A stretch of 20,125 nt of DNA from Desulfohalobiaceae bacterium (GTDB taxonomy: Bacteria; Desulfobacterota; Desulfovibrionia; Desulfovibrionales; Desulfothermaceae): the NCBI GenBank assembly GCA_021737615.1, contig JAIPDR010000053.1, positions 1-20,125 of the forward strand, read 5' to 3'. The position numbers were made by a program, and so were the translations under genes. Positions 1,847 through 18,460 of this stretch are shown here, piece after piece (the stretch's first letter is position 1; each line of letters starts with the position of its first letter). The notes under the pieces are model-generated. The model was not told the DNA's origin. It made no database searches and saw only the letters and a list, made by a program, of their open reading frames with translations.

Positions 1847-4800
1847 CTCCCGTCCAGCACCTCCCTCACTTTTCCGGCGATACCTTCCCGCTGAAAGGGT
1901 TTCATGAGTACGGCCCGGATCCCCTTTTCCTTGAGATTCTCCCTGGTAATCCGTTCGCTGAATCCAGTGCAGATGATCACGGGTAGATCCGGCCGGATGG
2001 CCAGCAACCGCAGGGTCAAGTCCTCCCCGGTCATCTGCGGCATGTCCATGTCGGTGATAACCAGATCAAAGGCTTCCGGGTCTGCGGCAAAGACCTCCAG
2101 GGCCTCGAGACTCCCGGTTCGGGCCTCGACCCGATAACCGAGGCCCTCGAGCATCCGCCTGCCGATTCGGACAATGGAGGGTTCGTCGTCCACCAGGAGA
2201 ATACGTTCGGTTCCGGCCTGGAGGGAGGCTTCCGGTTTGGATCGAGGGCCTTCTTCCGCCTCGAGTGCCGGCAGGTAAACCCGAAAGGTCGAGCCCCGGC
2301 CCGGCTCGCTATAGACCGAGATCATGCCTCCGTGCTCCTTGACAATGCCATAGGCCGTGGACAGGCCCAAACCGGTGCCCTTGTGTTTGTCCTTGGTGGT
2401 AAAGAAAGGTTCGAAGATCCGCTGCCTGACCTCCGGCGACATGCCGGGGCCGGTATCGCTGACGGTCAGACGAAGATATTCGCCCGGCTCCATATCGGCA
2501 TCCCGCTTTGTGAATCCTGCATCCAGGTCCGTGACCGAGAGTCCAATCTCAAGAACACCCCCGGTCTCGGCCATGGCCTGGGCCGCGTTGGTGCAGAGAT
2601 TCATCAAGACCTGATGCAGCTGGGAGGGATCACCGGAAACCAAGGGCAGATTCCCCTGAATTTCCCGGCGAATCTCAATGCCGGCCGACAGCGTGGCCTG
2701 GAGCATCTTCACGCTTTCTTTGACCAGGGCCTGGAGTTCCACTGGTTCTTTGTCTCCTTTTTGTTTTCGACTGAAAGCCAAGATCCGCTGCACCAGATCC
2801 GCAGCCCGGTTTCCGGCTTTGAGGATCTCATGCAGATCCCGATGAACCGGGCTGCCCGGTTTGGCCTCCGCAGCGGCCAGCTGGGCCGTGCCAATGATTG
2901 CGGTCAAAATATTGTTGAAATCATGAGCGATACCCCCGGCCAGGGTGCCGATGGCCTCCATTTTCTGGGCCTGCAGAAGTTTGACTTCCAGGTCCTGTTT
3001 CTCCTGTTCAGCCATTTTCCAGTCCGTGATATCACGGGCCAGGCCCTGTACACCCAGGACCTTGCCCAGAGCGTCTTTGCGCAGGGCGGCATTGGTGGAG
3101 ACCCAGACCAGGGAGCCGTCCCGGGCGGGCATTTCCGCCTGAAAATCCTTGAGTTCCCCGGTTTCTTGCAGCGCCGCCAGAAGATCCTCCCGCTGCTCAG
3201 GAATGCGGTAAAATCGAGACATTTGCTCGCCCAGAACCTCTTCCGGGGCATAGCCCAGGATATCCCTAACCGACGGAGAAATAACCGTGATGCGGCCCTT
3301 AGCGTCCGTACGGTAAAAAATGTCCGTGATACTGTAAAAAATATCCTGATATTCCTGCCGGCTTTGCCGCAGAGATCGTTCCATGTCTTTGCGCCGGCTG
3401 ATGTCCTGAACCATGACCTGCACGGCCGGCTGGCCCTCGTAGCTCAGGGCCGTGGCCATGACCTCGACGTCGATGGCCTGCCCGTCCAGGCGGACATAAC
3501 GGTCTTCCACCGGATAGAGACCGGTCTCCCCGGCCAGCATGCGCCGGATTCTGTCCCTTGCCGCGTCCCAATTGTCCGGGTGAATGATCTCCTTGATCGG
3601 CTTGCCCATAAGCTCTTCCGGGGAAGCGGCCCCGATGATCTCCGCCCCGGCCTGATTGCTGAAAACCACCCGTCCCCCGGCATGCACGCAGATCCCCACC
3701 GGCGAGACCTCGATCAGGTTGCGGTAGCGGGCCTCACTCTCCTGGAGCAATTGCTCGGCCTTTTTCAAGCTGCTGATATCGGTGTGGGTGCCGACCACCC
3801 GGACCGCCTTTCCCTGCTCATCATACGAAAAAACCTTGCCCCGGCCCAGGATCCACTTCCAGTGCCCGGATTTCGTCTCCAGCCTGAACTCTTTTTCAAA
3901 AGGCTCGGATTTCTGTGCAATGTGCTCAAGAATGCCTGCCTCGACACCTGCTCTGTCCTCCGGATGCAAAAGACCGGCCCAGGTCTCGTAGCTCTGGGGC
4001 AGCTCATAAGGCGTATAGCCGAGCATGGTGAAATAGCGAGGACTGAAATAGACCTCCCCGGTCCGGACATTCCAGTCCCAGAGGCCGTCATTACTGGCTT
4101 CCAGGGCAAAGGTGAGGCGCTCTTCACTTTTTTTCAGGGCCTCTTCCATGTCAATTTTTTCAGTGACATCCTCGGCCACCTTCACGAAATGAGTGATCGA
4201 GCCGTCTTCAGCAAACATGGGTGAGATGGAGGCCTGCTCCCAATAGAACTTATCATTTTTTTTCCGGTTAGAGAACATCCCCCGCCACTCCCGCCCTGAG
4301 AGCAGGGCCTCAAGCATTTCTTCAGCCTCTTTCTCCGATTGTTCACCCAATTCCATGGCCTTCCGGCCCAGAATCTCTGCGGCGGTATAGCCAGTTATTT
4401 GCTCAAACTTGGGATTCACGTACTCAATGTTGCCTTCACCATCGGTGATCATGACGATGTTCGGGCTTTGTTCGACGGCAGCGGACAATTTTCGAATTTC
4501 TCTCTCCGCCTCCTTGCGCCTGGCCAGCTCCGCCTCCAGGTCCTGCATCTTCTTTTCCAGCTTCTGTACCAAGCGCTGGCTGTAGAGTTTGTAGGTCTCT
4601 TCTTCTGCTCGCTGAGCCGGCTGACCCGGCTCAAGGCCTCGGGCCTCGGCTTCCTCCATCACCGCCTGGACTGCCTTGAGGAAATCGTTCGGCTGCATCG
4701 GCTTGCGCAGGAAGCGGTCCGCCCCCAGCTTAAGGGCAAAAGTCTCGTCCTTGTCGTCCACATACGTGGCCGTGTAAAAGATGAAAGGAATGTTTCGCAG

Positions 4801-5013
4801 GGCCTCGTTGCCCTTGCAGTGCTTGCAGAGCTGGAATCCGTCCATGACCGGCATGAGGATGTCGGCAATGATCAGGTCAAAGGGCTCGGCCTGGAGTTTG
4901 TCCAGGGCTTCCTGGCCGTTTGCAGCCGTGACGGTCTCATACCCCTTGGCCTGGAACATGGTCTGGAGCAGGTAGAGGTTTTCCAGCTTGTCGTCGACGA
5001 TGAGGGCCTTCAT
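1819..5013 (-). CDS. Hybrid sensor histidine kinase: REC - coiled coil - 4 PAS - HisKA - HATPase_c - REC
   Basis: 1064-aa ORF. ATG 5013 follows GGAGAG. The N-terminal receiver has VDD...DLIIADILMP. Four PAS-like blocks follow. The H-box is IAHDFNNILTAI and the HATPase G-boxes are DTGPGM and GTGLGLS. The C-terminal receiver has LLVDDE...DLVITDMDMP...LMKP. Confidence 0.92.
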   Translation of the reverse strand: MKALIVDDKLENLYLLQTMFQAKGYETVTAANGQEALDKLQAEPFDLIIADILMPVMDGFQLCKHCKGNEALRNIPFIFYTATYVDDKDETFALKLGADRFLRKPMQPNDFLKAVQAVMEEAEARGLEPGQPAQRAEEETYKLYSQRLVQKLEKKMQDLEAELARRKEAEREIRKLSAAVEQSPNIVMITDGEGNIEYVNPKFEQITGYTAAEILGRKAMELGEQSEKEAEEMLEALLSGREWRGMFSNRKKNDKFYWEQASISPMFAEDGSITHFVKVAEDVTEKIDMEEALKKSEERLTFALEASNDGLWDWNVRTGEVYFSPRYFTMLGYTPYELPQSYETWAGLLHPEDRAGVEAGILEHIAQKSEPFEKEFRLETKSGHWKWILGRGKVFSYDEQGKAVRVVGTHTDISSLKKAEQLLQESEARYRNLIEVSPVGICVHAGGRVVFSNQAGAEIIGAASPEELMGKPIKEIIHPDNWDAARDRIRRMLAGETGLYPVEDRYVRLDGQAIDVEVMATALSYEGQPAVQVMVQDISRRKDMERSLRQSRQEYQDIFYSITDIFYRTDAKGRITVISPSVRDILGYAPEEVLGEQMSRFYRIPEQREDLLAALQETGELKDFQAEMPARDGSLVWVSTNAALRKDALGKVLGVQGLARDITDWKMAEQEKQDLEVKLLQAQKMEAIGTLAGGIAHDFNNILTAIIGTAQLAAAEAKPGSPVHRDLHEILKAGNRAADLVQRILAFSRKQKGDKEPVELQALVKESVKMLQATLSAGIEIRREIQGNLPLVSGDPSQLHQVLMNLCTNAAQAMAETGGVLEIGLSVTDLDAGFTKRDADMEPGEYLRLTVSDTGPGMSPEVRQRIFEPFFTTKDKHKGTGLGLSTAYGIVKEHGGMISVYSEPGRGSTFRVYLPALEAEEGPRSKPEASLQAGTERILLVDDEPSIVRIGRRMLEGLGYRVEARTGSLEALEVFAADPEAFDLVITDMDMPQMTGEDLTLRLLAIRPDLPVIICTGFSERITRENLKEKGIRAVLMKPFQREGIAGKVREVLDGREEVPQVDK
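4500..5013. repeat. Copy 1 of a ~514-bp direct duplication (REC + coiled-coil module)
   Basis: Collinear with 5825-6338 at a constant offset of 1325 nt. By eye there are only scattered substitutions, and the stretch 4800-4990 versus 6125-6315 is almost identical. Confidence 0.9.
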
Positions 5014-5027
5014 GCGCTCTCCATATC

Positions 5028-5212
5028 ACATTTTGGATTTTGGATTGCGGACCTTCGGATTTTGGCCTATGCCCCGGCTTCCGTCTAGTAGAGCCTACAG
5101 CTCGAAGAGAAGGATTGCGGATAGATTTCAAGAAGAAAATTTTGGTTTTTTCTCATAATAACCAGCTCTTATTCTTCATCTTAACGATCCAAAATCCGCA
5201 ATCCAAAATCCT
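5028..5212. repeat. Spacer bracketed by inverted heptamer arrays, with a conserved core
   Basis: Arrays are 5028-5065 (acattttggattttggattgcggaccttcggattttgg) and 5186-5212 (gatccaaaatccgcaatccaaaatcc). Positions 5035-5051 are the exact reverse complement of 5195-5211 (17 bp). The right array overlaps the HD-GYP stop (5211-5213) and the left array ends 14 nt from the kinase ATG. Core 5127-5187 is homologous to 9601-9662 and, inverted, to 14058-14118. Confidence 0.9.
5155..5184 (-). promoter_or_regulatory. Sigma-70-like hexamer pair inside the conserved core (speculative)
   Basis: The minus strand reads TTAAGA-18 nt-TATTAT. The equivalent positions in the other copies read TTAAGA-18-TATCTG (9600s, minus strand) and GGAAGA-18-CTATAT (14060s, plus strand). 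There is no experimental support and the 18-nt spacer is suboptimal. Confidence 0.2.
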
Positions 5213-6338
5213 AAAAGCTGCCGGCATCGAAAGAAAAGCCTTTGTCCAGATACAGCCTGAGGCAGGCATCCACTGCTCCTGGATCGTACCTGATGCCCCG
5301 GCCCTGCTCGATCTCCTCCAATGCCTGATCCAAATCCAAGGCCGTACGGTAGGGCCGATGAGAGGTCATGGCCTCGACCACGTCGGCCACGGCCATGATA
5401 CGGGCTTCCAACAAGATATCCTTTTCGGACAGGCCCTGGGGATAACCGGAGCCATCCAGTCGCTCGTGATGCTGGAACACGGTCCGGGCGATGGGCCAGG
5501 GGAAGTCGATGTCCTTCAGGATGTCATAACCCGTCTGGGAATGGTTTTGAATCAGGCTGTATTCCATATCTGACAAGCGGACTGATTTGGATAGGATTTC
5601 CGCAGGCACCGCGATCTTTCCAAGATCGTGGATCATGCCTGCCAGAGAGACTCCCTTTTTCTGTTGTTCAGGAAGGGCCAATTCCCCGGCAATGGCCCGG
5701 GCGAGCCTGGCGACGCGGCTCTGGTGCCCGGATGTATAAGGGTCACGCAATTCGACCATTCTGGCGGTGGCCTTGACTGTTCCCTCCAAGGCCTTCCACA
5801 GTTGGGCATGAGCTTTCTGTAGGTTCTCCTCCGCTTGCTTGCGGCCGGCCAGCTCCACTTCCAGATCCTGCATCTTCTGTTCCAGCTTCTGCACCAAGCG
5901 CTGGCTGTAGAGTTTGTAGGTCTCTTCTTCTGCTCGCTGGGCCGGCTGGCCCGGCTCAAGGCCTCGGGCCTCGGCTTCCTCCATCACCGCCTGGGCTGCC
6001 CCGAGAAAGCCGTTCGGCTGCATGGGCTTGCGCAGGAAGCGGTCCGCACCCAGCTTCAAAGCAAAGGCCTCGTCTTTTTCATCCACATACGTGGCCGTGT
6101 AAAAGATGAAAGGAATGTTTCGCAGGGCCTCGTCGCCCTTGCAGTGCTTGCAGAGCTGAAATCCGTCCATGACCGGCATCAGGATGTCGGCAATGATCAG
6201 GTCAAAGGGCTCGGCCTGGAGTTTGTCCAGGGCTTCCTGGCCGTTTGCAGCCGTGACGGTCTCATACCCCTTGGCCTGGAACATGGTCTGGAGCAGGTAG
6301 AGGTTTTCCGGCTTGTCGTCGACGAGGAGGATTTTCAT
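5211..6338 (-). CDS. Response regulator with HD-GYP domain (RpfG-like c-di-GMP phosphodiesterase)
   Basis: ORF 5211..6377. I place the start at ATG 6338 (MKILLVDDKPENLYLL) because it aligns with the MKALIVDDKLENLYLL start of the paralogous module and GAGG lies 8 nt upstream. The longer ORF starts at a GTG inside a repeat. The HD-GYP motifs HDLGK and HHERLDGSGYPQGL are intact. Confidence 0.9.
   Translation of the reverse strand: MKILLVDDKPENLYLLQTMFQAKGYETVTAANGQEALDKLQAEPFDLIIADILMPVMDGFQLCKHCKGDEALRNIPFIFYTATYVDEKDEAFALKLGADRFLRKPMQPNGFLGAAQAVMEEAEARGLEPGQPAQRAEEETYKLYSQRLVQKLEQKMQDLEVELAGRKQAEENLQKAHAQLWKALEGTVKATARMVELRDPYTSGHQSRVARLARAIAGELALPEQQKKGVSLAGMIHDLGKIAVPAEILSKSVRLSDMEYSLIQNHSQTGYDILKDIDFPWPIARTVFQHHERLDGSGYPQGLSEKDILLEARIMAVADVVEAMTSHRPYRTALDLDQALEEIEQGRGIRYDPGAVDACLRLYLDKGFSFDAGSF
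5825..6338. repeat. Copy 2 of the REC + coiled-coil module duplication
   Basis: See 4500-5013. The protein segments are near-identical from LVDDK through QRLVQKLE.KMQDLE.ELA.RK.AE. Confidence 0.9.
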
Positions 6339-6356
6339 AAGAAGTGCCTCAAGTTG
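6339..6356. repeat. Solo arm of the AAGTGCCTAAAGT family immediately upstream of the HD-GYP start
   Basis: aagaagtgcctcaagttg is the exact reverse complement of 1827-1844. Confidence 0.85.
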
Positions 6357-6368
6357 TTTTACATTGTG

Positions 6369-6695
6369 AATCTCCACATTTTGGATTTTGGATTGCGGAA
6401 TTCAGAGTCATGATTTTGAGACTATTTGCTTTTTCTCGCGGTTTTTATCGAAGATACGATTATTGCGATAATTTCATCGTTTTCTTTCATGAGAGCAGGT
6501 ACCGAGTTCGTTTCAAGAATTTTCATCTCCTCTATGATCTCAAGCCAAAACAATGTTTCATCGGCTTCTTCTTCCACTATGGCCAATTTTGAAATAAAAT
6601 CAGCTACAACACCATCCTCCAATCTTCATTCCCCAATCCCTCAGGGGCTTAGTCCAAAGTCCACTTCCCCAATCCAAAATCCGCAATCCAAAATC
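6369..6695. repeat. Inverted heptamer arrays bracketing the four-helix-bundle gene remnant
   Basis: Arrays are 6369-6399 (aatctccacattttggattttggattgcgga) and 6669-6695 (ccaatccaaaatccgcaatccaaaatc). Positions 6384-6399 are the exact reverse complement of 6680-6695 (16 bp). The right array abuts the receiver stop codon (6694-6696). Confidence 0.9.
6422..6622 (-). pseudogene. C-terminal half of a four-helix-bundle protein (23S rRNA intervening-sequence protein family), N-terminal half missing
   Basis: The 66-aa ORF has a TTG as first codon and no ATG. The sequence ...DFISKLAIVEEEADETLFWLEIIEEMKIL...ENDEIIAIIVSSIKTARKSK matches helices 3-4 of the ~120-aa family (..EA.ET.YWLELL..). Upstream sequence in all frames is heptamer repeat, not helices 1-2. 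Confidence 0.6.
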
Positions 6696-7158
6696 ACAGA
6701 TATCGCCTGACCTCGTCCACAAACGATCCGGTATCAATCGGTTTTTCAATATAGCCGTCACAGCCGGCCGCAAAGGTCTTTTCCCGATCGCCCTTCATGG
6801 CATAGGCGGTCATGGCCACTACAGGCATACGCTTCATTTTGGATTTTGGATCTTGGATTTTGGATTCTTCTTTATTCTGTAATCCGGATTCCAAATTCCG
6901 AATTCGCCTCGTGGCCTCATACCCGTCCAGTTTGGGCAACTGCATATCCATCAGAACCAAATCGGGCTTCTTTTGAATGGCCTTTTGCACGCCCTCCTCT
7001 CCATCCCTGGCCTCCAAGACTTCAAAGCCGGCAATTTCCAGTAGAAATCTGGCCAGATACAAGTTTTTCTCCTCATCCTCAACGATCAAGACCTTCTTAT
7101 TCTGCGGCGAAAAATCAGGATTATAGCCCTTGGTGTTCATCATGCTCCATCCTTTCAT
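6694..7158 (-). CDS. Single-domain CheY-like response regulator with an expanded loop
   Basis: 154-aa ORF with ATG at 7158. Alternative starts at 7143/7140 have a better SD (AAGGATGGAG). REC motifs are VLIVEDEE, DLVLMDMQLP, VVAMTAYAMKGD and YIEKP. The loop between RRIRNLE and PVVAMTA is about twice its usual length (see 6835-6905). Confidence 0.88.
   Translation of the reverse strand: MKGWSMMNTKGYNPDFSPQNKKVLIVEDEEKNLYLARFLLEIAGFEVLEARDGEEGVQKAIQKKPDLVLMDMQLPKLDGYEATRRIRNLESGLQNKEESKIQDPKSKMKRMPVVAMTAYAMKGDREKTFAAGCDGYIEKPIDTGSFVDEVRRYL
6835..6905. repeat. Miniature heptamer element inside the receiver CDS, in frame
   Basis: The minus strand reads cggaatttggaatccggatt-acagaataaagaag-aatccaaaatccaagatccaaaatccaaaatg. 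That is an array, an AGAATAA(A)GA core and an inverse array. It translates as NLESGLQNKEESKIQDPKSKMK. Confidence 0.85.
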
Positions 7159-7222: not shown

Positions 7223-7341
7223 GTAAGTGCCTAAAATTAAGCGTTCTGTGTTTCATCGTTTCCCTATTGTCAATGTCTTCCTCTTCCAATTCTGCCAACT
7301 TTAGACACTTTCGTTCACTTACAAACTTGAGTCACTTCGTC
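7223..7341. repeat. ~119-bp hairpin (MITE-like) element, AAGTGCCTAAAGT family
   Basis: The left arm is gtaagtgcctaaaattaagcg (7223-7243). The right arm is ccaactttagacactttcgttcacttacaaacttgagtcacttcgtc (7295-7341). The right arm contains the last six codons (RSDSSL) and the stop codon (7319-7321) of the upstream kinase. Confidence 0.8.
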
Positions 7342-9454
7342 TCCCTCCTTCTCCCAAAGCCTTTTTGATATCCCGCAACAGATCTTCCCGGCTGGATTGC
7401 TGCTTCTGGATGATATTCTCGATCTTGCTGTTGAGCCAGGCCACTTCTTCCTGGGTCAACTTTTTACCGGAAACAATAATAATCGGGATATGCTTGGTGG
7501 GTTCTTCCTGTTTCAACCTGCCGATGACCTCAAAGCCGTCCACCTCCGGCATCATCAAGTCCAGGATGATCAGATCCGGGGCCTGCTCCGAGACCCTGTC
7601 CAGCCCCTCCTGCCCGCCATAGGCCTTTCTGACCCTGTAGCCGTTGATCTCTTCCAGGTATCTGGACAAGAGCTCCACGGCCCGGGCATCATCGTCCACG
7701 ATCAGGATATCGAAGATAGGCCGCATTTTCTTGAGCCGATCCAGCTCCCGGGTCAACCGGTCCTTGTCGATCGGTTTGACCAGGTATTCCACGGCTCCGA
7801 GGGAGAGGCCCAGCTCCCGGTTGTCCAGGATGGAGATGCAGATAACCGGAATGTTTTCGGTTTCAGGATCGTTTTTGAGTTCTTCCAGGATGTCCCAGCC
7901 ATCCCGGCCGGGCATGACGATATCCAGGGTCACGGCGAAGGGTTTGAATTTCCGGGCCAGCTGCAGGGCCTCCAGACCGTTGTAGGCCTGGATGACTTCA
8001 TAACCTTCGGCCTGGAGGTAGGTTGTAAGGATCTCCTGGGCCTCCAGCTCGTCGTCGATGGTCAGGATCAATTTCCTGGTCTGATCCAGGGTTTCAGGAG
8101 AGACAGCAGGCGGCCTGGCAGCCGGACCGGCCTCCTGGACGGGAATGTTGAAAAAAAAGCAGGAGCCCTGGCCATATTCGCTGTTCACCCCAATGGACCC
8201 GCCCATCATCTCCACCATTTTCTTGCAGATGGCCAGGCCCAGTCCTGTGCCCCCGGGTTTTTCCTTAAGCGGACCGTCGATCTGCTTGAATTCGTCAAAG
8301 ACCTCCTCCAGGTGCTCGGGCCGGATGCCCAGACCGGTGTCGGACACGCTGAAGCGGATCAGGGCCGGGCCGGCCGGTTCCACCCTCAGCTCTATCCGGC
8401 CGGAGCTGGTAAATTTTACGGCGTTGGACAGCATGTTGATCAAGACCTGCTTGATGCGGTTCTTGTCATTGTACAAGCCGGAGGGGACACCATCGGCTAC
8501 ATTCACAAAAAAATTTAAACCCTTATCCTGAACCAGGGGAGAGAACATGCCCTGGACCGTGTCAACAAGGCTTTGGACATCGAATTCAGCAGGCTGGATC
8601 TCGATCTTGCCGGCCTCGATCTTGGACAGGTCCAGGACGTCGTTGATCAGGCCCAAGAGGTGCTGGGCGCTGCCGTAGACCATGTTCAGCTGTTTTTTTT
8701 GTTCCGCATTGAGCTCGCCCGCCAATCCCTCGAGGATGATGCCGCTGAAGCCGATTATGGAGTTCAGGGGCGAGCGCAGTTCGTGGCTCATATTGGCCAT
8801 AAACTGGGACTTGAGCCGGCCGGCCTCTTCCAGGCGCTGGTTGGCCTTTTCCAGCTCCTGTTTCTTTTCCTTGAGTTCCGTGTTGACCCGGGTCAACTCT
8901 TCCTGACCGGCCCGCAGTTCATCCAGGGCCTGCAACAGGTCCTGGTTTTGCTGCTGGACTTCTGCAAACGCGGACCTGGGTCCCCCGGCTGCCAGCCCGG
9001 AGGTGAGGCGCTGGATATCTGCAGGGCCCCAAGGTTCCCGGCCCTCGGGAAGGGCCTTTCCCATGAGCACGCGGGTGCCCTGGCCCGGCCTGGAATCGAT
9101 CTCAAAATGGTCCATGAGCCGCCTGGCCCCGGCAAGGCCGATGCCCAGCCCGCTTTTGGAGGCATAGCCTTGCTTTAAGACGGCCTCCAGATCGGCAATC
9201 CCGGGGCCTTGGTCCTCGAAAGACATGCACAGCATCTGCGGCGAGGCCTCCAGGTCCAACTGGAAATCCAGCTTGCCGTCCCCGGCGTACTGGTAAACAT
9301 TGCGGGCCAGCTCGGACACAGCCGTGGTGATCCGGGTCTGATCCTGGGAGGTAAAGCCGATCAATCCGGCGATCTCCCTGGAGCGCTGCCTGGACAGAAT
9401 CACGTCGTCCTCGAAACGGATCTGAATGCTGAGGATCTTTGTTGGCATCTTCAT
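7319..9454 (-). CDS. Hybrid histidine kinase with N-terminal RsbT-like GHKL domain: RsbT-like - coiled coil - HisKA - HATPase_c - REC - REC
   Basis: ORF 7319..9562. Candidate ATG starts are 9454, 9448, or the repeat-encoded in-frame ATG 9493. The N-terminal domain reads QTRITTAVSELARNVYQYAGDGKL...DQGPGI...SGLGIGLAGARRLMDHFEIDSRPGQGTRV, which resembles RsbT as I recall it from B. subtilis. It is followed by MSHELRSPLNSI (H-box), the HATPase N/G boxes, and two receivers (LDIVMPGRDG and LDLMMPEVDG). Confidence 0.88.
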   Translation of the reverse strand: MKMPTKILSIQIRFEDDVILSRQRSREIAGLIGFTSQDQTRITTAVSELARNVYQYAGDGKLDFQLDLEASPQMLCMSFEDQGPGIADLEAVLKQGYASKSGLGIGLAGARRLMDHFEIDSRPGQGTRVLMGKALPEGREPWGPADIQRLTSGLAAGGPRSAFAEVQQQNQDLLQALDELRAGQEELTRVNTELKEKKQELEKANQRLEEAGRLKSQFMANMSHELRSPLNSIIGFSGIILEGLAGELNAEQKKQLNMVYGSAQHLLGLINDVLDLSKIEAGKIEIQPAEFDVQSLVDTVQGMFSPLVQDKGLNFFVNVADGVPSGLYNDKNRIKQVLINMLSNAVKFTSSGRIELRVEPAGPALIRFSVSDTGLGIRPEHLEEVFDEFKQIDGPLKEKPGGTGLGLAICKKMVEMMGGSIGVNSEYGQGSCFFFNIPVQEAGPAARPPAVSPETLDQTRKLILTIDDELEAQEILTTYLQAEGYEVIQAYNGLEALQLARKFKPFAVTLDIVMPGRDGWDILEELKNDPETENIPVICISILDNRELGLSLGAVEYLVKPIDKDRLTRELDRLKKMRPIFDILIVDDDARAVELLSRYLEEINGYRVRKAYGGQEGLDRVSEQAPDLIILDLMMPEVDGFEVIGRLKQEEPTKHIPIIIVSGKKLTQEEVAWLNSKIENIIQKQQSSREDLLRDIKKALGEGGRRSDSSL
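7361..8850. repeat. Copy 1 of a ~1.5-kb duplicated transmitter module (HisKA-HATPase-REC-REC)
   Basis: Collinear with 15983-17480 at an offset of 8622-8631 nt with a few small indels. Long identical nucleotide runs occur, for example ctcgatcttgccggcctcgatcttggacaggtccaggacgtc. The protein segments are roughly 85% identical by eye. Confidence 0.9.
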
Positions 9455-9691: not shown

Positions 9692-9700
9692 CTATAGTCA

Positions 9701-11157: not shown

Positions 11158-11533
11158 GGCCCTTCTCCCGGGAAGACGATCCCAGCCTCTTGGCAAGCAG
11201 GGCCATGCCTTTGTCCACATCCAGGGCGGTCCGGATGCCTTTGATGGCCAGGCCCAGCTCGACAATGGTGATGGCCACCTCCGGCTGCATACCCACCAGG
11301 ACCGTTTCCGCATCCAGAAGGCCGGCCGTGGCCGCCATGTCTCCCAGGGTGCGGCCCATGAAGGAATCGATCATCTGCAGGGCTGAGATGTCGATCAATA
11401 CCCCCCTGGCCCCGGTTTTTTGAATCTGCTCGGCCAGGTCATCCCGCAGGGCCAGGGCCAAGCGGTCGTGCAAGTCCACTTGAATGATCACCAAAAGAAA
11501 ATTCCCCCACTTGAGGATCGGAATCCGTTCCAT
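11132..11533 (-). CDS. rsbS: RsbS-like single-STAS stressosome scaffold protein
   Basis: This lies in ORF 11132..11626. The start is ATG 11533 (MERIPILKWGNFLLVIIQ), since upstream codons are heptamer repeat. It is a STAS fold with DISALQMIDSFMGRTL, where the Ser sits at the expected phospho-acceptor position. Confidence 0.85.
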   Translation of the reverse strand: MERIPILKWGNFLLVIIQVDLHDRLALALRDDLAEQIQKTGARGVLIDISALQMIDSFMGRTLGDMAATAGLLDAETVLVGMQPEVAITIVELGLAIKGIRTALDVDKGMALLAKRLGSSSREKGRVPDRTEA

Positions 11534-11579
11534 GCTAGCGCCTTTCAGAAGAGGTTTTGATTGACTATTGATTATTTCA

Positions 11580-11650
11580 GCAATCGACAATCCAACATGT
11601 GAAGATCCAAAATCTCCAATCCGCAATCCAAAATCCGCAATCCAAAATCC
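11580..11650. repeat. Unpaired 71-bp heptamer array filling most of the rsbR-rsbS spacer
   Basis: gcaatcgacaatccaacatgtgaagatccaaaatctccaatccgcaatccaaaatccgcaatccaaaatcc starts directly after the rsbR stop codon (11651-11653). I found no complementary array before the rsbS start. Confidence 0.9.
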
Positions 11651-12520
11651 CTAGAATCTGCCCGGCTCCCCCTTGACCACATAACCGCTGCGTTCCAAGG
11701 CCAGGGCAAGCGCATCCGCCAGGGTGGCCTTGGTGGGAATTCCCCCCAGCTCCAGGCCCATGTCCACCATGGACTGGGCGATCATCGGCCGGATCCCGCT
11801 GATGATGCACTCGGCGCCCATGAGACCGGCCGCGGATACGGTCTTGATCAGATGCTGGGCCACCAGGGTGTCCACGGTGGGCACGCCGGTGATATCCATA
11901 ATGGCGATGGTGGATTTGGTTTCCACAATCATCTGCAAAAGGTTTTCCATGACCGTCTGGGTGCGGGCGCTGTCCAGGGTCCCGATCAGGGGGACCGCCA
12001 GGACCCCGTGCCAGAGCTGGACCACAGGCGTGGACAGCTCCATGATCTCCTCCTGCTGGCGCCGGATGACCTGTTCCCGGTGCTGAATAGAAGCTTCGGT
12101 GGTATACAGGCCCAGCTTGTCCAGCAGCCGGGTCGCGGTCCAGATTTCCTGCACCAGTTCCTCTGGATTCTCGGCCAGAAGGCTCTGGAGGAGGTACATC
12201 AGGGGCTGTTTAAAGGAAAAGATACAGGTGGCCACCTCCGAGGGGGTAAAGCCTTTTTCCCCCCGGGTGCGGGAGATCCTGGACAGCATGTCCCTGACTT
12301 CTTTCCAGGCTTCAGCGCTTGTATCAACGACTCCGCCCGCCTGCAGGGCCGAGCGGAAAAGACTGATAAATTCAGCAGCTTCTTCCCGCAGTGCGGTTTC
12401 ATCAATCAAATCCGGCCGCAAGACGCCGGAACTCAATTGTTCCCGGATCCAGTCCTTCAACAGCTCCTGTTCATACTTTTCAAGTATCTCCGGCAGGCGC
12501 GTTGTCTCTTGATCATTCAT
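11651..12520 (-). CDS. rsbR: RsbR-like stressosome sensor (N-terminal helical sensory domain + C-terminal STAS)
   Basis: 289-aa ORF. ATG 12520 has AGGAGG 7 nt upstream. The C-terminal STAS reads STPVVQLWHGVLAVPLIGTLDSARTQ...IMDITGVPTVDTLVAQHL, with Thr at the RsbR phospho-site position. The N-terminal ~150 aa resemble RsbR-type sensory domains (ILEKYEQELLKDWIREQL). Confidence 0.88.
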   Translation of the reverse strand: MNDQETTRLPEILEKYEQELLKDWIREQLSSGVLRPDLIDETALREEAAEFISLFRSALQAGGVVDTSAEAWKEVRDMLSRISRTRGEKGFTPSEVATCIFSFKQPLMYLLQSLLAENPEELVQEIWTATRLLDKLGLYTTEASIQHREQVIRRQQEEIMELSTPVVQLWHGVLAVPLIGTLDSARTQTVMENLLQMIVETKSTIAIMDITGVPTVDTLVAQHLIKTVSAAGLMGAECIISGIRPMIAQSMVDMGLELGGIPTKATLADALALALERSGYVVKGEPGRF

Positions 12521-12845: not shown

Positions 12846-12880
12846 CCTATAGTTCACTTATCGACTTGAGGCGCTTCTTC
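12846..12880. repeat. Arm of the AAGTGCCTAAAGT family overlapping the 3' end of the SBP/4-Cys sensor gene
   Basis: Positions 12854-12880 (tcacttatcgacttgaggcgcttcttc) differ at only 3 of 27 positions from 1819-1845. The arm encodes EEAPQVDK plus the stop codon. Confidence 0.85.
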
Positions 12881-14020
12881 AAATTCAGAGTAGAGCAGGG
12901 CCTCGCAATCCGGGCAGATGCCGTGGGAAAATGTAGCTTCTGAGTGTTTCTTGATGAAGAATTCGATCTGGTTCCAGTAGCCCTGGTCGTCCCGGATCTT
13001 TTTGCAGTTGGCGCAGATTGGGATGAGCCCTTTCAAGGTCTTGACTTGGACCAGGGCTTCCTGGAGCCGGTTCCGCTCATTGAGAAGCGCAGTCTCAGCC
13101 GCAGTTTTCCGGGCGATTTCCTCCTCCAGGGTCGTATTACGTTCCTTCAATTCTCTGGTTTTGGATCTGACCTGCTGTTTCAAGACCAGGCTGAAGAGAG
13201 CAAACAGACAGCCCAGGCCGACTGCCGCGGCCAATCCGAAAAGCAAAGCCCTGGGCACCTCCCGTTCCACCCGCATGTCGAACCAGTGCTCCAGGGTCTG
13301 GTTGTAGAAGGAATTCCGGTCCTGCTTCAGGACGGAAAGCTGTTGATCAATAGCGGCCGCCAGGTCCTGGTTATGCCCTTTGGGAAAGGCGAATCTGAGT
13401 TCCACCGGGGCCAGGACGATGGGCGTCCGCCTGACCTCGTATTTGTCCTCCTCGGCCAGGCCGTAGAGCCTGCTGATGATCCCGGCCTCCGCCGCTCCCC
13501 GGTCCAGGGCTTGAAAGACTTCTTTGTAACCGCTGCAGAGCACATACTCGCAGGCAATGTTGAACTGCTTGAAGCGTTCAAAGGAGATACCCCCTTGCAT
13601 GACCGCGACTCTTTTGCCCTGAAGCTGCTCGACGTTTTCAATGTCCAATCCTGCGCGGCTGTAAATCCTAGCCCAGTTGGAGAGCACGGTCTCCCGGTTG
13701 AAGTCATACATTTCGGCCCGGTCCCGGCTATAGGCCACATCCACCATGATATCCAGCTTGCCGGCCCGCAGCCGGTCCAGGCACTGCTGCCAGGTCCCGG
13801 GCACATAGTCCAGGTCCCAGCCTTCCTGCCTCGCGATATCCCCCAGAAGATCCACCCAGATTCCGGCGGGCCTGCCGGCCTCATCCAGGTAGACCTTGGG
13901 CTTGTTCTGATAGATGCCCACCCGGACCGTCTCGGCAGCAGACCCTGAAGCCGGGAGCCAGAACAGGAGCAACAGGGCGATGAGCAGCCGTATGAAATTT
14001 TGGATTTTGGATCTCCACAT
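12854..14020 (-). CDS. Membrane sensor: signal peptide - periplasmic SBP_bac_3 (Venus-flytrap) domain - TM - coiled coil - short 4-Cys C-terminal domain
   Basis: ORF 12854..14101 has a TTG as first codon. The likely start is ATG 14020 (MWRSKIQNFIRLLIALLLLFWLPASGSAA, signal-peptide-like). The SBP domain begins VRVGIYQNKPKVYLDEAG...DIMVDVAYSRDRAEMYDF. The TM segment is ALLFGLAAAVGLGCLFALFSLVL. The C-terminus is ICANCKKIRDDQGYWNQIEFFIKKHSEATFSHGICPDCEALLY. Confidence 0.85.
   Translation of the reverse strand: MWRSKIQNFIRLLIALLLLFWLPASGSAAETVRVGIYQNKPKVYLDEAGRPAGIWVDLLGDIARQEGWDLDYVPGTWQQCLDRLRAGKLDIMVDVAYSRDRAEMYDFNRETVLSNWARIYSRAGLDIENVEQLQGKRVAVMQGGISFERFKQFNIACEYVLCSGYKEVFQALDRGAAEAGIISRLYGLAEEDKYEVRRTPIVLAPVELRFAFPKGHNQDLAAAIDQQLSVLKQDRNSFYNQTLEHWFDMRVEREVPRALLFGLAAAVGLGCLFALFSLVLKQQVRSKTRELKERNTTLEEEIARKTAAETALLNERNRLQEALVQVKTLKGLIPICANCKKIRDDQGYWNQIEFFIKKHSEATFSHGICPDCEALLYSEFEEAPQVDK
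13090..13965. repeat. Copy 1 of a ~0.88-kb duplicated sensor module (SBP domain + TM + start of coiled coil)
   Basis: Collinear with 17542-18417 at an offset of 4452 nt. Identical runs of 40-60 nt occur, for example gccaggccgtagagcctgctgatgatcccggcctccgccgctcccc. The protein segments are roughly 85-90% identical by eye. Confidence 0.9.
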
Positions 14021-14247
14021 TTTGGATTTTGGATCTCCACATTTTGGATTTTGGATTAGGAAGACACAGAATAAGAACTGGTCTATATGGAATAAATCCA
14101 ATACCTTTTTCCTAAAGCATCTATCCCTCAGGGCCGGCCTCCAGCTCCGCTACGGGCCGGAGAGTAAAGTATACGCCCTGGAGAAAAGCCAAAATCGACC
14201 CTCTTTCTTTTTCCGCAATCCAAAATCCGCATTCCAAAATCCAAAAT
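13996..14247. repeat. Spacer bracketed by inverted heptamer arrays, with the conserved core in opposite orientation
   Basis: The left array (13996-14057) contains the 22-bp unit attttggattttggatctccac in 2.8 tandem copies (13997-14018, 14019-14040, 14041-14057). The right array is 14212-14247. Positions 14041-14055 are the exact reverse complement of 14233-14247 (15 bp). Core 14058-14118 is homologous to the reverse complement of 9601-9662. Confidence 0.9.
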
Positions 14248-14250: not shown

Positions 14251-15783
14251 TCAAACGCTTTCCCACTCAAACCCCACGATATTCCGTTTCTCACTGGAAA
14301 ACTCCACCCCGATCAAATAGACCTCCTGCCCGGCGAATTTTTCCGCGTACCCCCTGGCCTTGATCTGTTCCAGGGCCCCGGCTTGATCCGTGAGCTCCAC
14401 CACCTTGAACTCGATCAGATAGATCCGGTCCTCAAAACGCAGGGTCAGGTCCATCCTGCCCTTGTTCGTCGGCTCTTCAGGATGGACGTCCAGCCCAAGG
14501 GCTGCAAAATAACAGTAGACAATGGAGGCGTAGTAGCCTTCATACCCGGCCAATTGGTTCTTGCGATACCAGTCATGGGGGATGGAGGCGAAAAAGGCCT
14601 GAAACAGCTCACGGAGCTTATCCAGGTCATTGACTGAGAGGGCATCCAGCAGATCGGACTGATTTCTGGTCTTGGCCAGGCGGGCCTGGGATAGTCCGTT
14701 CAAAATGGAGTTGGTCAGACTGGCCTTGACCTCCATGTTGGGGTAACCAAGGCGATACCGGCTAAAGGCCCCGGTCTGGGAAAAGCCCCTGATAGTCAAG
14801 TAGCCGGTCTGGAAAAGAAGGGCCTCCGCAACAATTGAATCGATATCAAAACTGCCCACGATTTCCTCTCCCACGGTCAGGTCTTCCACTTCCGGGATGC
14901 TGTACCGGCCCTCCTGCAGCAGTTTGACCAGAAAACCCGGGGTTCCGGTTTCAAACCAATAATTCCGAAATTCCTTAGAATCCAAATACAGCAGAATATC
15001 AAAAGGGTTATAGACCTCGTCTCCCAGCCAGTTGTACCCATTGTACCACTGTTGGACCTGATCCTTATCCACCCCGTCCAAACGATCCACAAAGACCGTC
15101 TCCAATTCCTGCTGGGTATATCCACAAATCGCTGAAAAGCGCTTATCCAGGGTGATGTCCTTGAGGTTGTTCAAACCGCTGAACAAGGAAACCTTGCTGA
15201 ATTTGGAGACCCCGGTGATGAATACGAATTCTAGATAGGGATCGGCATCCTTGATCACTGAGTAGTAGTTCTTGAGCTCCTCTCTGATTTCCACAGCTGT
15301 TGCCGGTTTTTCAATATTGTCCAGGATGGGCTTGTCATATTCGTCCACCAGGACCACCACTTTTTGGCCGAATTGCCTGCACAAGGTGTGGATCAGTTCG
15401 GCGAAGCGGCTTCTCAAATCATCATAGCTGAAAGAAATTTTGTATTCTTTCGCATGCTCGGATAATATATAGGTAAAAGATTGCTGAAGCTCCTCAATAG
15501 TTCTCAGCACTCCGGAGCCAAAGCTGATATGGACCACCGGATTCGTCCGGTCCCAATCCCAGTGATCAAAAAGATACTGTCCTTGAAACAAGTCCTTTTT
15601 GCCTTGATAGGCGGCCTTGATGGTGCTCAGGAACAAACTCTTGCCGAAGCGCCTAGGCCGGGAGAGGAAGTAATAATCCCCGGCCTGGGCCAGCTCGCTG
15701 ATAAACCGTGTTTTATCGACATAGTAACAGTTGCTTTCAATCAGCTTTTCAAAGGTCTGAATGCCGATGGGCAGCTTTTTCAT
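14251..15783 (-). CDS. AAA-ATPase-like protein with C-terminal PD-(D/E)XK nuclease domain (AAA-ATPase_like + PDDEXK_9 architecture)
   Basis: 510-aa ORF. ATG 15783 has AGGAG 9 nt upstream. The N-terminus MKKLPIGIQTFEKLIESNCYYVDKTRFI...FLSRPRRFGKSL is the family hallmark. The C-terminus GRMDLTLRFEDRIYLIEFKV carries the D...ExK nuclease motif. Confidence 0.88.
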   Translation of the reverse strand: MKKLPIGIQTFEKLIESNCYYVDKTRFISELAQAGDYYFLSRPRRFGKSLFLSTIKAAYQGKKDLFQGQYLFDHWDWDRTNPVVHISFGSGVLRTIEELQQSFTYILSEHAKEYKISFSYDDLRSRFAELIHTLCRQFGQKVVVLVDEYDKPILDNIEKPATAVEIREELKNYYSVIKDADPYLEFVFITGVSKFSKVSLFSGLNNLKDITLDKRFSAICGYTQQELETVFVDRLDGVDKDQVQQWYNGYNWLGDEVYNPFDILLYLDSKEFRNYWFETGTPGFLVKLLQEGRYSIPEVEDLTVGEEIVGSFDIDSIVAEALLFQTGYLTIRGFSQTGAFSRYRLGYPNMEVKASLTNSILNGLSQARLAKTRNQSDLLDALSVNDLDKLRELFQAFFASIPHDWYRKNQLAGYEGYYASIVYCYFAALGLDVHPEEPTNKGRMDLTLRFEDRIYLIEFKVVELTDQAGALEQIKARGYAEKFAGQEVYLIGVEFSSEKRNIVGFEWESV

Positions 15784-15797
15784 AAGGACAGGCTCCT

Positions 15798-15844
15798 GAT
15801 TTTGGATTGCGGATTTTGGATTGCGGATTGCAGATTTTGGATTT
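15798..15844. repeat. Heptamer array just upstream of the AAA-ATPase-like gene's RBS
   Basis: gattttg gattgcg gattttg gattgcg gattgca gattttg gattt is about 6.7 units. It lies 14 nt from the ATG at 15783. Confidence 0.9.
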
Positions 15845-15847: not shown

Positions 15848-15967
15848 GGAAGTGCCTAAAGTCGGGGAACACCTAAAGTATTCGGAATTATAAGAGCGGT
15901 CGCTGCAGTCTCCGTTCCGTCAACTTTAGTCGCTTTAGTTCACTTCTCAACTTTAGCTCACTTCTTC
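15848..15967. repeat. ~120-bp hairpin (MITE-like) element, AAGTGCCTAAAGT family
   Basis: The left arm is ggaagtgcctaaagtcggggaacacctaaagtattcgg (15848-15885). The right arm is ccgtcaactttagtcgctttagttcacttctcaactttagctcacttcttc (15917-15967). The terminal ~15 nt are imperfect inverted repeats. The right arm encodes EEVS plus the stop codon (15953-15955) of the upstream kinase. Confidence 0.85.
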
Positions 15968-18460
15968 TCCACCTCCCAAAGCCTTTTTGATATCCCGCAG
16001 CAAATTCTCCTTGTTGAATTGTTCTTTCTGGATGATATATTCGATCCTGCTGTTGAGCCACTCTATTTCTTCCTGGGTCATTTTTTTTCCGGAGACGATA
16101 ATAATCGGGATATGCTTGCCGGGCTCTTCTTTCTTCAGCCGGCCGATGACCTCAAAGCCGTCCACCTCCGGCATCGCCAGATCCAGGATGATCAGGTCCG
16201 GGGCCTGTTCCGAGACCCTGTCCAGCCCCTCCTGCCCGCCATAGGCCTTTCTGATCCTGTAGCCGTTGAGTTCTTCAAGGGACCTGGACAAAAGCTCCAC
16301 GGCCAGGGGATCATCGTCCACGATCAGGATATCGAAGATGGACCGTATTTTCTTCAGCCGCTCCAGCTCCCGGGTCAGCCGGTCCTTGTCGATCGGCTTG
16401 ACCAGATAGTCCACTGCCCCCAGGGAGAGGCCCAGTTCGCGGTTATCCAGCATGGAGATGCAGATAACCGGGATATCCTCGGTCTGGGGATCATTTTTAA
16501 GTTCTTCCAGGATATCCCAGCCGTCCCGGCCGGGCATGACGATATCCAGGGTCACGGCAAAGGGCTTGAATTTCCGGGCCAGCTGCACGGCCTCCAGGCC
16601 GTTGCAAGCCTGGACGACTTCATAGCCCTCGGCCTGGAGATAGGCTTTGAGGATCTCCTGAGCCTCCTTATCGTCATCGATGGTCAGGATCAACTTTTTG
16701 TCCGGATCCAGATCTTCAGAAGAAATCGCGGGGCTTTTTTCGAAAGTAGCCGGTGCTTGAACCGGAATGGTGAACCAGAAGCAGGAACCCTGGCCGTATT
16801 CGCTGTCCACTCCGATGCATCCGCCCATCATCTCCACCATTTTCTTGCAGATGGCCAGGCCCAGCCCGGTGCCTCCGGGCTTTTCCTTGAGGGGGCCGTC
16901 GATCTGCTGGAACTCATCAAAGACCTCTTCCAGGTGTTCGGTGCGGATACCCAGACCGGTGTCGGAGACACTGAAACGGATCATTTCCCCACCGGCCTCC
17001 CCCTTGAGCAGGTCGGTTTTGAGGCAGACCCTGCCTGATTCCGTGAATTTTACGGCGTTGGAGAGCAGGTTGATCAGAATCTGCTTGATGCGATTCTTGT
17101 CGTTGTACAAGGTGGATGGGATATCCGAGACGTCGAGACCAAAATTCAGGCCTTTTTTCTGAACCAGGGGGGCCACCATGTCTTGCACCGATTTCAGTAG
17201 CTCCCTGAGCTCGAATTCAGCAGGCTGGATCTCGATCTTGCCGGCCTCGATCTTGGACAGGTCCAGGACGTCATTGATCAGCCCCAACAGGTGCTGGGCG
17301 CTGTCATAGACCATGCCCAGCTGCTTGCGCTGCTCTTGGTTGAGCTCCCCTGCCAGCCCCTCCAGGAGGATTCCGCTGAAGCCGATGATGGAGTTCAGGG
17401 GAGAACGCAGCTCGTGGCTCATGTTGGCCAGAAACTGGGACTTGAGCCGGCCGGCCTCTTCCAGACGCTGGTTGGCTTCAGACAATTCCCGGGTCCGGCC
17501 TTCGACCTTTTGTTCCAAGGTCTCGGCATAGTCCTGCAAACGAGTTTCCGCCTGCCGGCGTTTCAAGATTTCGGCTTCCAGGGCCTGGTTGCGCTCCGAG
17601 AGTTCCCGGGTTTTGGCCCGGACCTGCCGTCTGAGGACCAGGGCGAATATAAAAAACAGGCCCCCCAGGCCCACGGCCGCGGCCAGTCCAAAGAGCAAAA
17701 CCCCGGGCACTTCCCGCTCCACCCGCCTGTCGAACCACTGCTCCAGGGTCTGGTGGTAGAAAGAATCCCGGTTCTGCTTCAAGGCGGACAGGCGCCGGTC
17801 AATGGCGGCAATCAGGTCCCGGCCTTGATCCTTGGGAAAAGCGAACCTGAGCTCCACCGGAGCCAGGACGATGGGTGTCCGCCTGACCTCGTATCTGTCT
17901 TCCTCGGCCAGGCCGTAGAGCCTGCTGATGATCCCGGCCTCCGCCGCTCCCCGATCCAGAACTTGAAAGACCTCTTTGTAGCCGCTGCAGAGCACATACT
18001 CGCAGGCAATGTTGAACTGCTTGAAGCGCTCGAAGGAGATCCCCCCTTGCATAACCGCGACCCTTTTTCCCTGGAGCTGCTCGACGTTTTCAATGTCCAA
18101 TCCCGAGCGGCTGTAGACCCGGGCCCAATTTGAGAGCACGGTCTCTCTGTTGAAGTCAAAAAGTTCGGCCCGGTCCCGGCTGTAGGCCACGTCCACCATG
18201 ATATCAAGCTCGCCCGCCTGCAGCCGGTCCAGGCACTGCTGCCAGGTCCCGGTCACATACTCCAGATCCCAGCCTTCCTGCCTCGCGATATACCCCAGAA
18301 GATCCACCCAGAGCCCAGCCGGATTCCCGGCCTCATCCAGGTAGACCTTGGGCTTGTTCTGATAAATGCCCACCCGGAGCGTCTCGGCCGCTGTCCCTGT
18401 AACCGGGAGCCAGGACAGGATTAGCAAAGTTAGCACAGGGGTCAGGCAGCGGAGTGTCAT
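15953..18460 (-). CDS. Hybrid histidine kinase: signal peptide - periplasmic SBP_bac_3 domain - TM - coiled coil - HisKA - HATPase_c - REC - REC
   Basis: ORF 15953..18475 has a GTG as first codon. The likely start is ATG 18460 (MTLRCLTPVLTLLILSWLPVTGTAA). The N-terminal ~320 aa are paralogous to the 12854-14020 product and the C-terminal ~510 aa to the 7319-9454 product. The H-box is MSHELRSPLNSI. Confidence 0.9.
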   Translation of the reverse strand: MTLRCLTPVLTLLILSWLPVTGTAAETLRVGIYQNKPKVYLDEAGNPAGLWVDLLGYIARQEGWDLEYVTGTWQQCLDRLQAGELDIMVDVAYSRDRAELFDFNRETVLSNWARVYSRSGLDIENVEQLQGKRVAVMQGGISFERFKQFNIACEYVLCSGYKEVFQVLDRGAAEAGIISRLYGLAEEDRYEVRRTPIVLAPVELRFAFPKDQGRDLIAAIDRRLSALKQNRDSFYHQTLEQWFDRRVEREVPGVLLFGLAAAVGLGGLFFIFALVLRRQVRAKTRELSERNQALEAEILKRRQAETRLQDYAETLEQKVEGRTRELSEANQRLEEAGRLKSQFLANMSHELRSPLNSIIGFSGILLEGLAGELNQEQRKQLGMVYDSAQHLLGLINDVLDLSKIEAGKIEIQPAEFELRELLKSVQDMVAPLVQKKGLNFGLDVSDIPSTLYNDKNRIKQILINLLSNAVKFTESGRVCLKTDLLKGEAGGEMIRFSVSDTGLGIRTEHLEEVFDEFQQIDGPLKEKPGGTGLGLAICKKMVEMMGGCIGVDSEYGQGSCFWFTIPVQAPATFEKSPAISSEDLDPDKKLILTIDDDKEAQEILKAYLQAEGYEVVQACNGLEAVQLARKFKPFAVTLDIVMPGRDGWDILEELKNDPQTEDIPVICISMLDNRELGLSLGAVDYLVKPIDKDRLTRELERLKKIRSIFDILIVDDDPLAVELLSRSLEELNGYRIRKAYGGQEGLDRVSEQAPDLIILDLAMPEVDGFEVIGRLKKEEPGKHIPIIIVSGKKMTQEEIEWLNSRIEYIIQKEQFNKENLLRDIKKALGGGEEVS
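15983..17480. repeat. Copy 2 of the duplicated transmitter module
   Basis: See 7361-8850. Confidence 0.9.
17542..18417. repeat. Copy 2 of the duplicated SBP sensor module
   Basis: See 13090-13965. Confidence 0.9.

Follow-up and report, generated by a model that had tools for sequence, protein, structure and literature searches.

Lineage-specific expansion of histidine kinases (HKs), with domain shuffling and orphan kinases, has been described with Desulfovibrio as the worked example, in a study that left the source of the shuffled sensor domains untraced and the mechanism open (Alm, Huang & Arkin 2006, PMC1630713). RsbRST stressosome modules with outputs other than sigma-B are also on record (Pane-Farre, Lewis & Stulke 2005, as cited in PMC4976288), as are Rec-controlled kinases that are activated through a coiled coil with a length preferring multiples of seven, among them the LvrA to LvrB relay of Leptospira, in which a hybrid kinase acts upstream of a second kinase, whose head is a REC domain with a helical linker (PMC13269768). 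The locus considered here occupies a window of 20,125 nucleotides (nt) from a Desulfohalobiaceae bacterium (JAIPDR010000053.1), which is essentially the entire contig C70 (20,126 bp) of a metagenome-assembled genome (MAG; G000) that comprises 280 contigs and 3.84 Mb. It carries a stressosome cluster and five signalling genes that share three copied modules, all of these genes lying on the minus strand. As rpoB (PF00562) was not found in the bin, RecA was taken for taxonomy instead, and its 80–81% identity to the proteins of Desulfovibrionaceae/Desulfovibrio MAGs places the assembly in the Desulfovibrionales.

As in the Desulfovibrio case, the cores of two of the window's kinases are mutual closest relatives (sisters with support 100/100; about 81–82% amino acid (aa) identity against at most 67% outside) and are joined to different N-terminal sensors, an RsbT-like HATPase_c_2 domain in one and a periplasmic solute-binding protein domain (SBP_bac_3) with transmembrane (TM) segments in the other. 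The latter, the SBP kinase, is an orphan with no adjacent receiver gene, and the organism belongs to the same order as Desulfovibrio. Unlike that case, a sensor head and a receiver head have also been duplicated inside one 14-kb stretch, donors can be named, and the events can be dated at the nucleotide level. The resemblance to RsbRST modules lies in the clustering of RsbR, RsbS, RsbT and an RsbX-like PP2C protein ahead of a two-component output, an order that is the same in the metagenome contig L018. The window differs in that its output kinase has an RsbT-like domain of its own, fused to a HisKA-HATPase-REC-REC transmitter, and in that this transmitter has been copied to a periplasmic sensor.

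Internal duplications were sought by self-BLASTN of the window, and their edges were placed by 30-nt sliding identity and base-level alignment. Exactly three long internal matches were returned, all direct, all between minus-strand genes and all with E = 0, which confirms, to within 25 nt of the coordinates given, the three duplications among paralogous sensor genes that had been read from the letters alone in an original prediction for this DNA. A Pfam search of the window's genes likewise bore out the domain content given there for the five module-bearing genes and supports the picture of three modules common to genes with unrelated remainders (coordinates in Table 1). Module A, a REC domain with a helical linker, is 93.0% identical over 516 nt (92% aa identity); module B, the SBP sensor with its membrane segments, is 85.7% identical over 854 nt without a gap, with 88% aa identity in the SBP core; and module C, the transmitter, is 81.8% identical over 1573 nt (about 81–82% aa identity; DHp 93%, CA 76%, REC1 90%, REC2 84%). 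The earlier wording of near-identical copies is an overstatement and is too strong for B and C, as these reach only 82–86% at the nucleotide level. The edges proved abrupt in both views. Module A extends from the start codon to about codon 171, with its edge at about 4497/5822, and module C begins 20 codons before the phospho-histidine (8845/17476) and stays similar for about 25 nt beyond the stop codon, into a dispersed repeat. Module B opens within the signal peptide, takes in the SBP domain and the second TM segment and fades in the first turns after the membrane; its edge lies at about 13114/17566, behind a TM and post-TM stretch that is more diverged than the rest. The SBP kinase had been proposed to be an exact chimera of modules B and C; both are present, but the join is not seamless, a private connector of about 30 aa lying between them.

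The copies stand far apart from all other relatives. The next-best relatives in the same genome share 35% (A), 25% (B) and 37% (C) aa identity, and the best outside matches in a collection of 5.8 billion proteins share about 62%, 56% and 67%, against 82–92% within the window pairs. Repeats of 400 nt or more within a single contig number just five in the whole assembly, and modules A, B and C account for three of them.

Ages were estimated from synonymous and nonsynonymous divergence (dS and dN; Nei-Gojobori, with bootstrap 95% intervals). The dS values are 0.19 for module A (0.11–0.30), 0.49 for module B (0.36–0.65; 0.37 in the SBP core) and 0.61 for module C (0.49–0.75). For all three, dN/dS is 0.18–0.23, and purifying selection has acted on the two copies of each module since they parted. 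A rough yardstick is provided by the congener G002, which holds fragments of the locus only (the C-terminal REC of the PAS kinase, REC154, MscS and GGDEF-AAA) and was kept out of the module trees; its putative orthologues give dS values of 0.59 for the PAS-kinase REC, 0.57 for REC154 and 0.57 for GGDEF. Because the paralogue values of B and C match this orthologue range of 0.57–0.59, these two modules are about as old as the split from the congener and module A is younger, the orthologues compared being other parts of the locus, with none of the modules themselves assembled in the congeners.

Phylogeny and synteny point to donors for two of the modules. In the tree of transmitters (63 rows), the nearest outgroup of the window's module C pair includes the RsbT-type kinase of the metagenome contig L013, which is collinear with the window's RsbT-like kinase over its full length (59% identity over 715 aa). 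L013 carries the core cassette without HD-GYP or SBP genes (RsbT 61%, RsbX 53%, REC154 60% and A-type head 60% identical to those of the window), and L018, also lacking HD-GYP and SBP genes, encodes RsbR-RsbS-RsbT-RsbX followed by an RsbT-like kinase, a REC protein and a REC-PAS-HK-REC protein. From this outgroup and the conserved cassette synteny, the RsbT-like stressosome kinase is the likely donor of module C. In the module A tree, the sister group of the window's two copies is formed by REC heads from the syntenic REC-PAS kinases in L013 and L015, so that the PAS-kinase lineage is the likely donor and the HD-GYP gene the likely recipient. The window copies are also sisters in the module B tree. 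In line with the original prediction, the module trees are incongruent with whole-protein architecture. A congener contig (G002:C458) carries GGDEF, a 390-nt spacer and AAA/PDDEXK, and lacks the segment of about 3.6 kb that holds the SBP kinase in the window; this 'empty site' fits an insertion of the segment in the window lineage.

Among 40 relatives of the same genus, family or order, the SBP kinase has no match above 50% and RsbR has no match at all, and the best match to the A-type head in three congeners is 41%. The stressosome cassette (9701–12520) was not found in these 40 genomes and is yet syntenic in L013 and L018, which may point to horizontal acquisition of the island. Within the genus, the locus shows great plasticity: at C326 (L116) and C332 (L105) of G002, an orthologue of REC154 (83% aa identity) follows a different PAS-HK-REC gene and not a stressosome kinase, and about 4.3 kb of other genes lie between the end of the PAS kinase and MscS.

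All five architectures occur in other lineages; the five genes are canonical representatives of their families that have come to share modules, and not unprecedented chimeras. REC-HD-GYP proteins of 369–371 aa align to the window protein without gaps at about 60% identity in both halves, the REC-PAS-HK architecture is also present in other lineages, SBP-HK-REC-REC and RsbT-HK-REC-REC proteins are found elsewhere at 45–49% and 55–59% identity, respectively, and the SBP-TM-coil-4Cys architecture is found in P0124 and others. The A-type REC with its 55-aa linker is a conserved unit that heads HD-GYP, PAS-HD-GYP, GAF-HD-GYP and PAS-HK proteins, and the C-type transmitter is joined to at least a dozen kinds of sensor, the sensor label changing at least 29 times on the 63-row tree. 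A three-gene unit, consisting of a [variable sensor]-HisKA-HATPase-REC-REC protein, a small REC protein and a PAS protein with an A-type REC head, recurs in L013, L014, L015 and L018 and is seen with RsbT-like, SBP and MASE3 heads; between L013 and L015 the transmitters are 87% and the A-type heads about 94% identical, and the sensors are different.

The inner junctions, which had been placed in coiled-coil linkers, are indeed found within linker helices. For the SBP kinase, AlphaFold (mean predicted local distance difference test score, pLDDT, 80) predicts a single helix (residues 290–366) that holds the end of module B (about residue 299), the start of module C (about 329) and His349, and so spans both joins. 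The pattern is general, as in four other sister pairs of the transmitter clade with different sensor heads similarity sets in 9–40 residues before the phospho-histidine. In engineered chimeric sensor kinases such as Taz and YF1, sensor and transmitter meet in the helix that precedes the DHp domain, where the heptad register has to be kept. The window's sensor-transmitter join likewise lies in the helix before the DHp; unlike the engineered ones, the joins are natural, and five independent sister pairs in the clade show them at 9–40 residues before the phospho-histidine.

These observations are best accounted for by a plastic island of signalling genes around a conserved stressosome cassette (RsbR-RsbS-RsbT-RsbX, the RsbT-like hybrid kinase, a single REC and a REC-PAS kinase), in which three separate module transfers took place, probably through recombination or the duplication of parts of genes. 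In one, a copy of the stressosome kinase's transmitter would have come to end the SBP-headed membrane kinase; in another, the SBP kinase and the SBP-4Cys protein came to share an SBP and TM sensor head, modules B and C both dating from around the congener split; and, more recently, the head of the REC-PAS kinase (REC and linker) would have been copied onto the neighbouring REC-HD-GYP phosphodiesterase or have overwritten its head. Each inner junction falls in a signalling helix, where joins that preserve register stay functional, and each outer edge is a gene end adjoining dispersed repeats.

The island's signalling can be envisaged in the same terms. A periplasmic ligand, through the SBP kinase, and the cytoplasmic stressosome, through the RsbT-like kinase, would both lead to phosphorylation of REC154 and of the two A-type REC heads, and the phosphorylated heads would switch the PAS kinase and the HD-GYP cyclic di-GMP phosphodiesterase via their coiled-coil linkers, in the manner of LvrA to LvrB. 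The original prediction, in which two inputs feed one type of transmitter and one phospho-input governs two outputs, appears reasonable from the conserved DHp and REC surfaces. In the alignments, helix 1 of the DHp after the histidine is identical between the two transmitters save for a conservative I/L change, and the alpha-1 helices of the two A-type RECs are identical. The SBP kinase has no REC gene of its own, the AAA/PDDEXK gene being next, and the RsbT-like kinase is followed by REC154, which is kept downstream of this kinase in L013 and L018. REC154 is a likely shared phospho-acceptor, and in the most probable arrangement it would be fed, together with the A-type heads, by both kinases.

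As in the LvrA to LvrB relay, a hybrid kinase would act upstream of a kinase headed by REC and a helical linker. Unlike LvrB, the window's PAS kinase has four PAS domains between linker and DHp and a C-terminal REC. NCBIfam returned sub-threshold LvrA-like matches for both transmitters and an LvrB-like match for the PAS kinase (174 bits against a cut-off of 500), and, with scores so far below the curated cut-offs, the comparison is one of analogous mechanism and not of membership. For the account of module transfers with this shared wiring taken as a whole, a probability of about 0.78 appears appropriate.

Several observations weigh against this account. Four of the six DHp differences lie in the loop and at the start of helix 2, for which reason partial insulation is possible in place of common partners. 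The window encodes no histidine phosphotransfer (Hpt) domain. Five Hpt matches occur elsewhere in the genome, of which two fall in open frames about 150 aa long, and two stand-alone Hpt candidates lie on contigs C193 and C51; with no Hpt in the window, any path by which the hybrid kinases reach other receivers is putative. Support behind the donor assignments is moderate, at 90/83 for the module C outgroup and 89 by the Shimodaira-Hasegawa-like approximate likelihood ratio test (SH-aLRT) for module A in a quick tree. The nearest outgroups of module B (P0122 and P0123) are partial or have a different output, neither showing a window architecture, and give no direction for that transfer. The 'empty site' of G002 is just 76–82% identical and the AAA/PDDEXK gene is multi-copy, which makes its orthology uncertain. 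Each of the four window proteins that were checked was seen on this contig only, and matches of 1 kb or more to other contigs, with a median identity of about 85%, cover 9.7% of the MAG.

Two recombination routes fit the module transfers, namely an in-frame fusion after partial duplication, sieved by selection for register, and the in-register replacement of a homologous module in a gene already present, the balance tipping only slightly towards the former. In the second, all five genes would have existed beforehand as canonical members of their families, with homologous modules only about 55–60% identical, and one module would have been overwritten by its neighbour's through ectopic, homeologous gene conversion. 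This competes with the preferred account over the route and not over the fact of transfer, as it implies only that no new chimeric gene was born. It would explain why every architecture pre-exists elsewhere, why the REC-HD-GYP protein aligns gap-free to its family, why the A tract stops at about aa 165–171, the very point at which the REC-PAS-HK and REC-HD-GYP families cease to be homologous, and why the dS of module A is well below the orthologue value of 0.57, as expected of the later overwriting of an older head. However, conversion between DNA about 60–65% identical is mechanistically hard, the tracts span the whole homologous unit with no arbitrary internal ends, and neither A nor C retains a leftover segment of older divergence. 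The congener contig further suggests that the whole SBP kinase is an insertion, and SBP-transmitter fusions are polyphyletic in both module trees, which indicates that de novo fusion is common in the transmitter clade. Replacement is thus a credible alternative for the route, though we hold it to be the less probable one.

The intergenic spacers are rich in dispersed repeats. A hairpin element of about 104 nt resembling miniature inverted-repeat transposable elements (MITE-like) is present at 9594–9697, 5121–5216 and 14019–14118, with 24 near-full copies on 22 contigs of the genome (18 at 95% identity or more) and dozens more at 90–99% in three congeners. Heptamer arrays (GGATTTT/GGATTGC and their complements) occupy nearly every spacer, for example 5021–5065, 9455–9541, 11602–11650, 13982–14076 and 15797–15842, and in a simple pattern search 10 of the 27 arrays in the genome fell on this contig. 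A short dispersed motif (GAAGTGNCTNAAGTT-like) at 1796–1849, 7298–7338, 12854–12880 and 15915–15970, with an inverted copy at 6339–6360, overlaps the last codons and stop of four sensor genes, two of which thereby end in ...PQVDK, and the GGDEF gene of G002:C458 also ends in it. The repeats, which bracket nearly every gene, could be imagined as recombination or landing sites from which sensor genes are assembled out of modules, a 'sensor workshop'. All outer edges of the three duplications adjoin dispersed repeats and the G002 'empty site' is bounded by the stop-codon motif. In the base-level view, the inner in-frame junctions carry no repeat, which counts against repeat-driven assembly, and we consider it unlikely; if true, it would explain the mechanism of kinase domain shuffling that Alm et al. 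left open.

The likeness of the copies had also been attributed to recent duplication or ongoing gene conversion. Ectopic gene conversion and concerted evolution are known among bacterial paralogues, for example tufA/tufB, and the window shares with such cases a sharp-edged rise in nucleotide identity that ends where homology ends. On this explanation the copies would be old and kept alike by frequent, continuing conversion. In its favour are the first 52 codons of module A, in which 46 silent-capable codons in a row show no difference and dS is 0.04–0.08 against 0.2–0.4 further on. Permutation tests on silent-capable codons (two sequences per module; longest identical run and number of runs) gave no significant mosaic of identical tracts, with p = 0.38 for B, 0.11 for C and a borderline 0.05 for A, and the longest exact shared runs are only 129, 53 and 62 nt. 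Unlike tufA/tufB, the divergence is large (dS 0.19–0.61) and not mosaic, and the paralogues of B and C are no closer than congener orthologues. Neither recent duplication nor ongoing conversion is therefore supported, and continuing concerted evolution of the modules is improbable.

The bin is not clean, so that the location of all modules in one genome rests on contig continuity. It probably mixes two related populations, redundant stretches including 5.7 kb at 87% identity between C16 and C102 and 5.3 kb at 90% between C10 and C41. An assembly artefact, in which related populations were joined at repeats or identical stretches into a chimeric contig, would gain from this redundancy and from the MITE-like elements, which at 95–99% identity on 22 contigs could mislead an assembler. 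Against it, no copy of any module is broken or out of frame and all show purifying selection, the differences are spread evenly over each module, and the inner junctions join non-homologous sequences, between which assemblers do not switch. The order RsbX, RsbT-like kinase, REC and REC-PAS kinase is matched by independent metagenome contigs, the MITE-like copies sit inside contigs and not at their ends, which indicates that the assembler resolves them, and this contig has no partner contig. Its composition is typical of the bin, and it has genus-specific MITE-like elements in common with three congeners. Even in a misjoined contig the genes would be module-sharing chimeras, and the artefact is very improbable. 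Finally, although all three module types come from large conserved families, a reading as ordinary, uniform conservation within the REC, SBP and transmitter families, without any particular duplication, is refuted by the sharp edges and by the identity gap to other relatives, the likeness reaching silent sites and stopping abruptly.

Table 1. Copied modules, genes and related segments of the window (positions in the 20,125-nt window)
Feature	Position	Strand	Remarks
Module A, copy 1	4498–5013	minus	REC and helical linker of about 55 aa; heads REC-4xPAS kinase
Module A, copy 2	5824–6338	minus	REC and linker; heads REC-HD-GYP regulator
Module B, copy 1	13115–13968	minus	Sensor module; heads SBP-TM-coil-4Cys protein
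Module B, copy 2	17567–18420	minus	End of signal/first TM segment, SBP_bac_3, second TM segment, first post-TM helix turns; SBP kinase
Module C, copy 1	7290–8845	minus	HisKA-HATPase-REC-REC transmitter; RsbT-like kinase
Module C, copy 2	15915–17476	minus	Transmitter; SBP kinase
Private connector of SBP kinase	17477–17566	minus	About 30 aa; unlike either parent module; inside long helix into DHp
Segment absent from G002:C458	15969–19572		About 3.6 kb; SBP kinase, DUF433, frameshifted DUF5615, MITE-like element
GGDEF gene	19556–20083	minus	Open at contig end; first in transcription order
DUF433 gene	18875–19204	minus	Intact
DUF5615 gene	18526–18872	minus	Split by frameshift (18744–18872 and 18526–18765)
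SBP kinase	15953–18460	minus	SBP_bac_3 and HisKA-HATPase-REC-REC (Pfam)
AAA-ATPase_like/PDDEXK_9 gene	14251–15783	minus	Between both SBP genes
SBP-TM-4Cys protein	12854–14020	minus	SBP_bac_3 (Pfam), TM, coil and 4-Cys tail
4-Cys tail of SBP protein	12857–13096	minus	Output module of about 60 aa; very conserved, widespread
RsbR	11651–12520	minus	RsbRD_N and STAS (Pfam)
RsbS	11132–about 11533	minus	STAS (Pfam)
RsbT	10747–about 11150	minus	HATPase_c_2 (Pfam)
RsbX-like protein	9701–about 10768	minus	HATPase_c_2 and SpoIIE (Pfam)
RsbT-like stressosome-output kinase	7319–9454	minus	HATPase_c_2 and HisKA-HATPase-REC-REC (Pfam)
REC154	6694–7158	minus	Single-domain receiver; directly after RsbT-like kinase in gene order
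REC-HD-GYP response regulator	5211–6338	minus	Response_reg and HD_5 (Pfam)
REC-4xPAS kinase	1819–5013	minus	REC-4xPAS-HisKA-HATPase-REC (Pfam)
MscS	455–1312	minus	Last in transcription order

The REC-HD-GYP protein has a motif of the HHExxDGxGYP type, which reads QHHERLDGSGYP, and shows the RpfG-type order of REC followed by HD-GYP. Directly upstream of the SBP kinase, DUF433 and the frameshifted DUF5615 (18526–19204, minus strand) are likely a toxin-antitoxin remnant. The AAA-ATPase_like/PDDEXK_9 gene is present in multiple copies in the genus, with at least five copies or fragments in G002 (69–88% nt identity) and at least one full-length copy in G001 (69%), and may be mobile or selfish.

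The 4-Cys tail of the SBP protein has the consensus KTLxGLxPICAxCKKIRDDxGYWxQxExYIxxHSEAxFSHGICPxC. It was present in 111 of the 240 proteins retrieved, behind REC, PAS, GAF, MASE3, SBP, HAMP and other heads, and in more than 532 loci from many phyla at 63–81% identity. No Pfam or NCBIfam family, PDB sequence match or Foldseek match with E < 1 was found for the tail, nor was a paper containing the motif found in the literature. Its AlphaFold model (pLDDT 86) has a predicted beta-alpha-alpha-beta-alpha order.

Taken with the systems described above, the locus is a case of lineage-specific expansion with domain shuffling that is unusually complete; it is not a new kind of system and leaves current understanding unchanged. 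With three dated transfers in 14 kb and donors identifiable for two of them, it offers a compact natural experiment in sensor rewiring. The stressosome-output transmitter behaves as a portable cassette, which has been re-coupled to other sensors in several lineages, and the locus provides material on the degree of cross-talk that can be tolerated once a transmitter or receiver head has been copied, and on the pace at which insulation follows.

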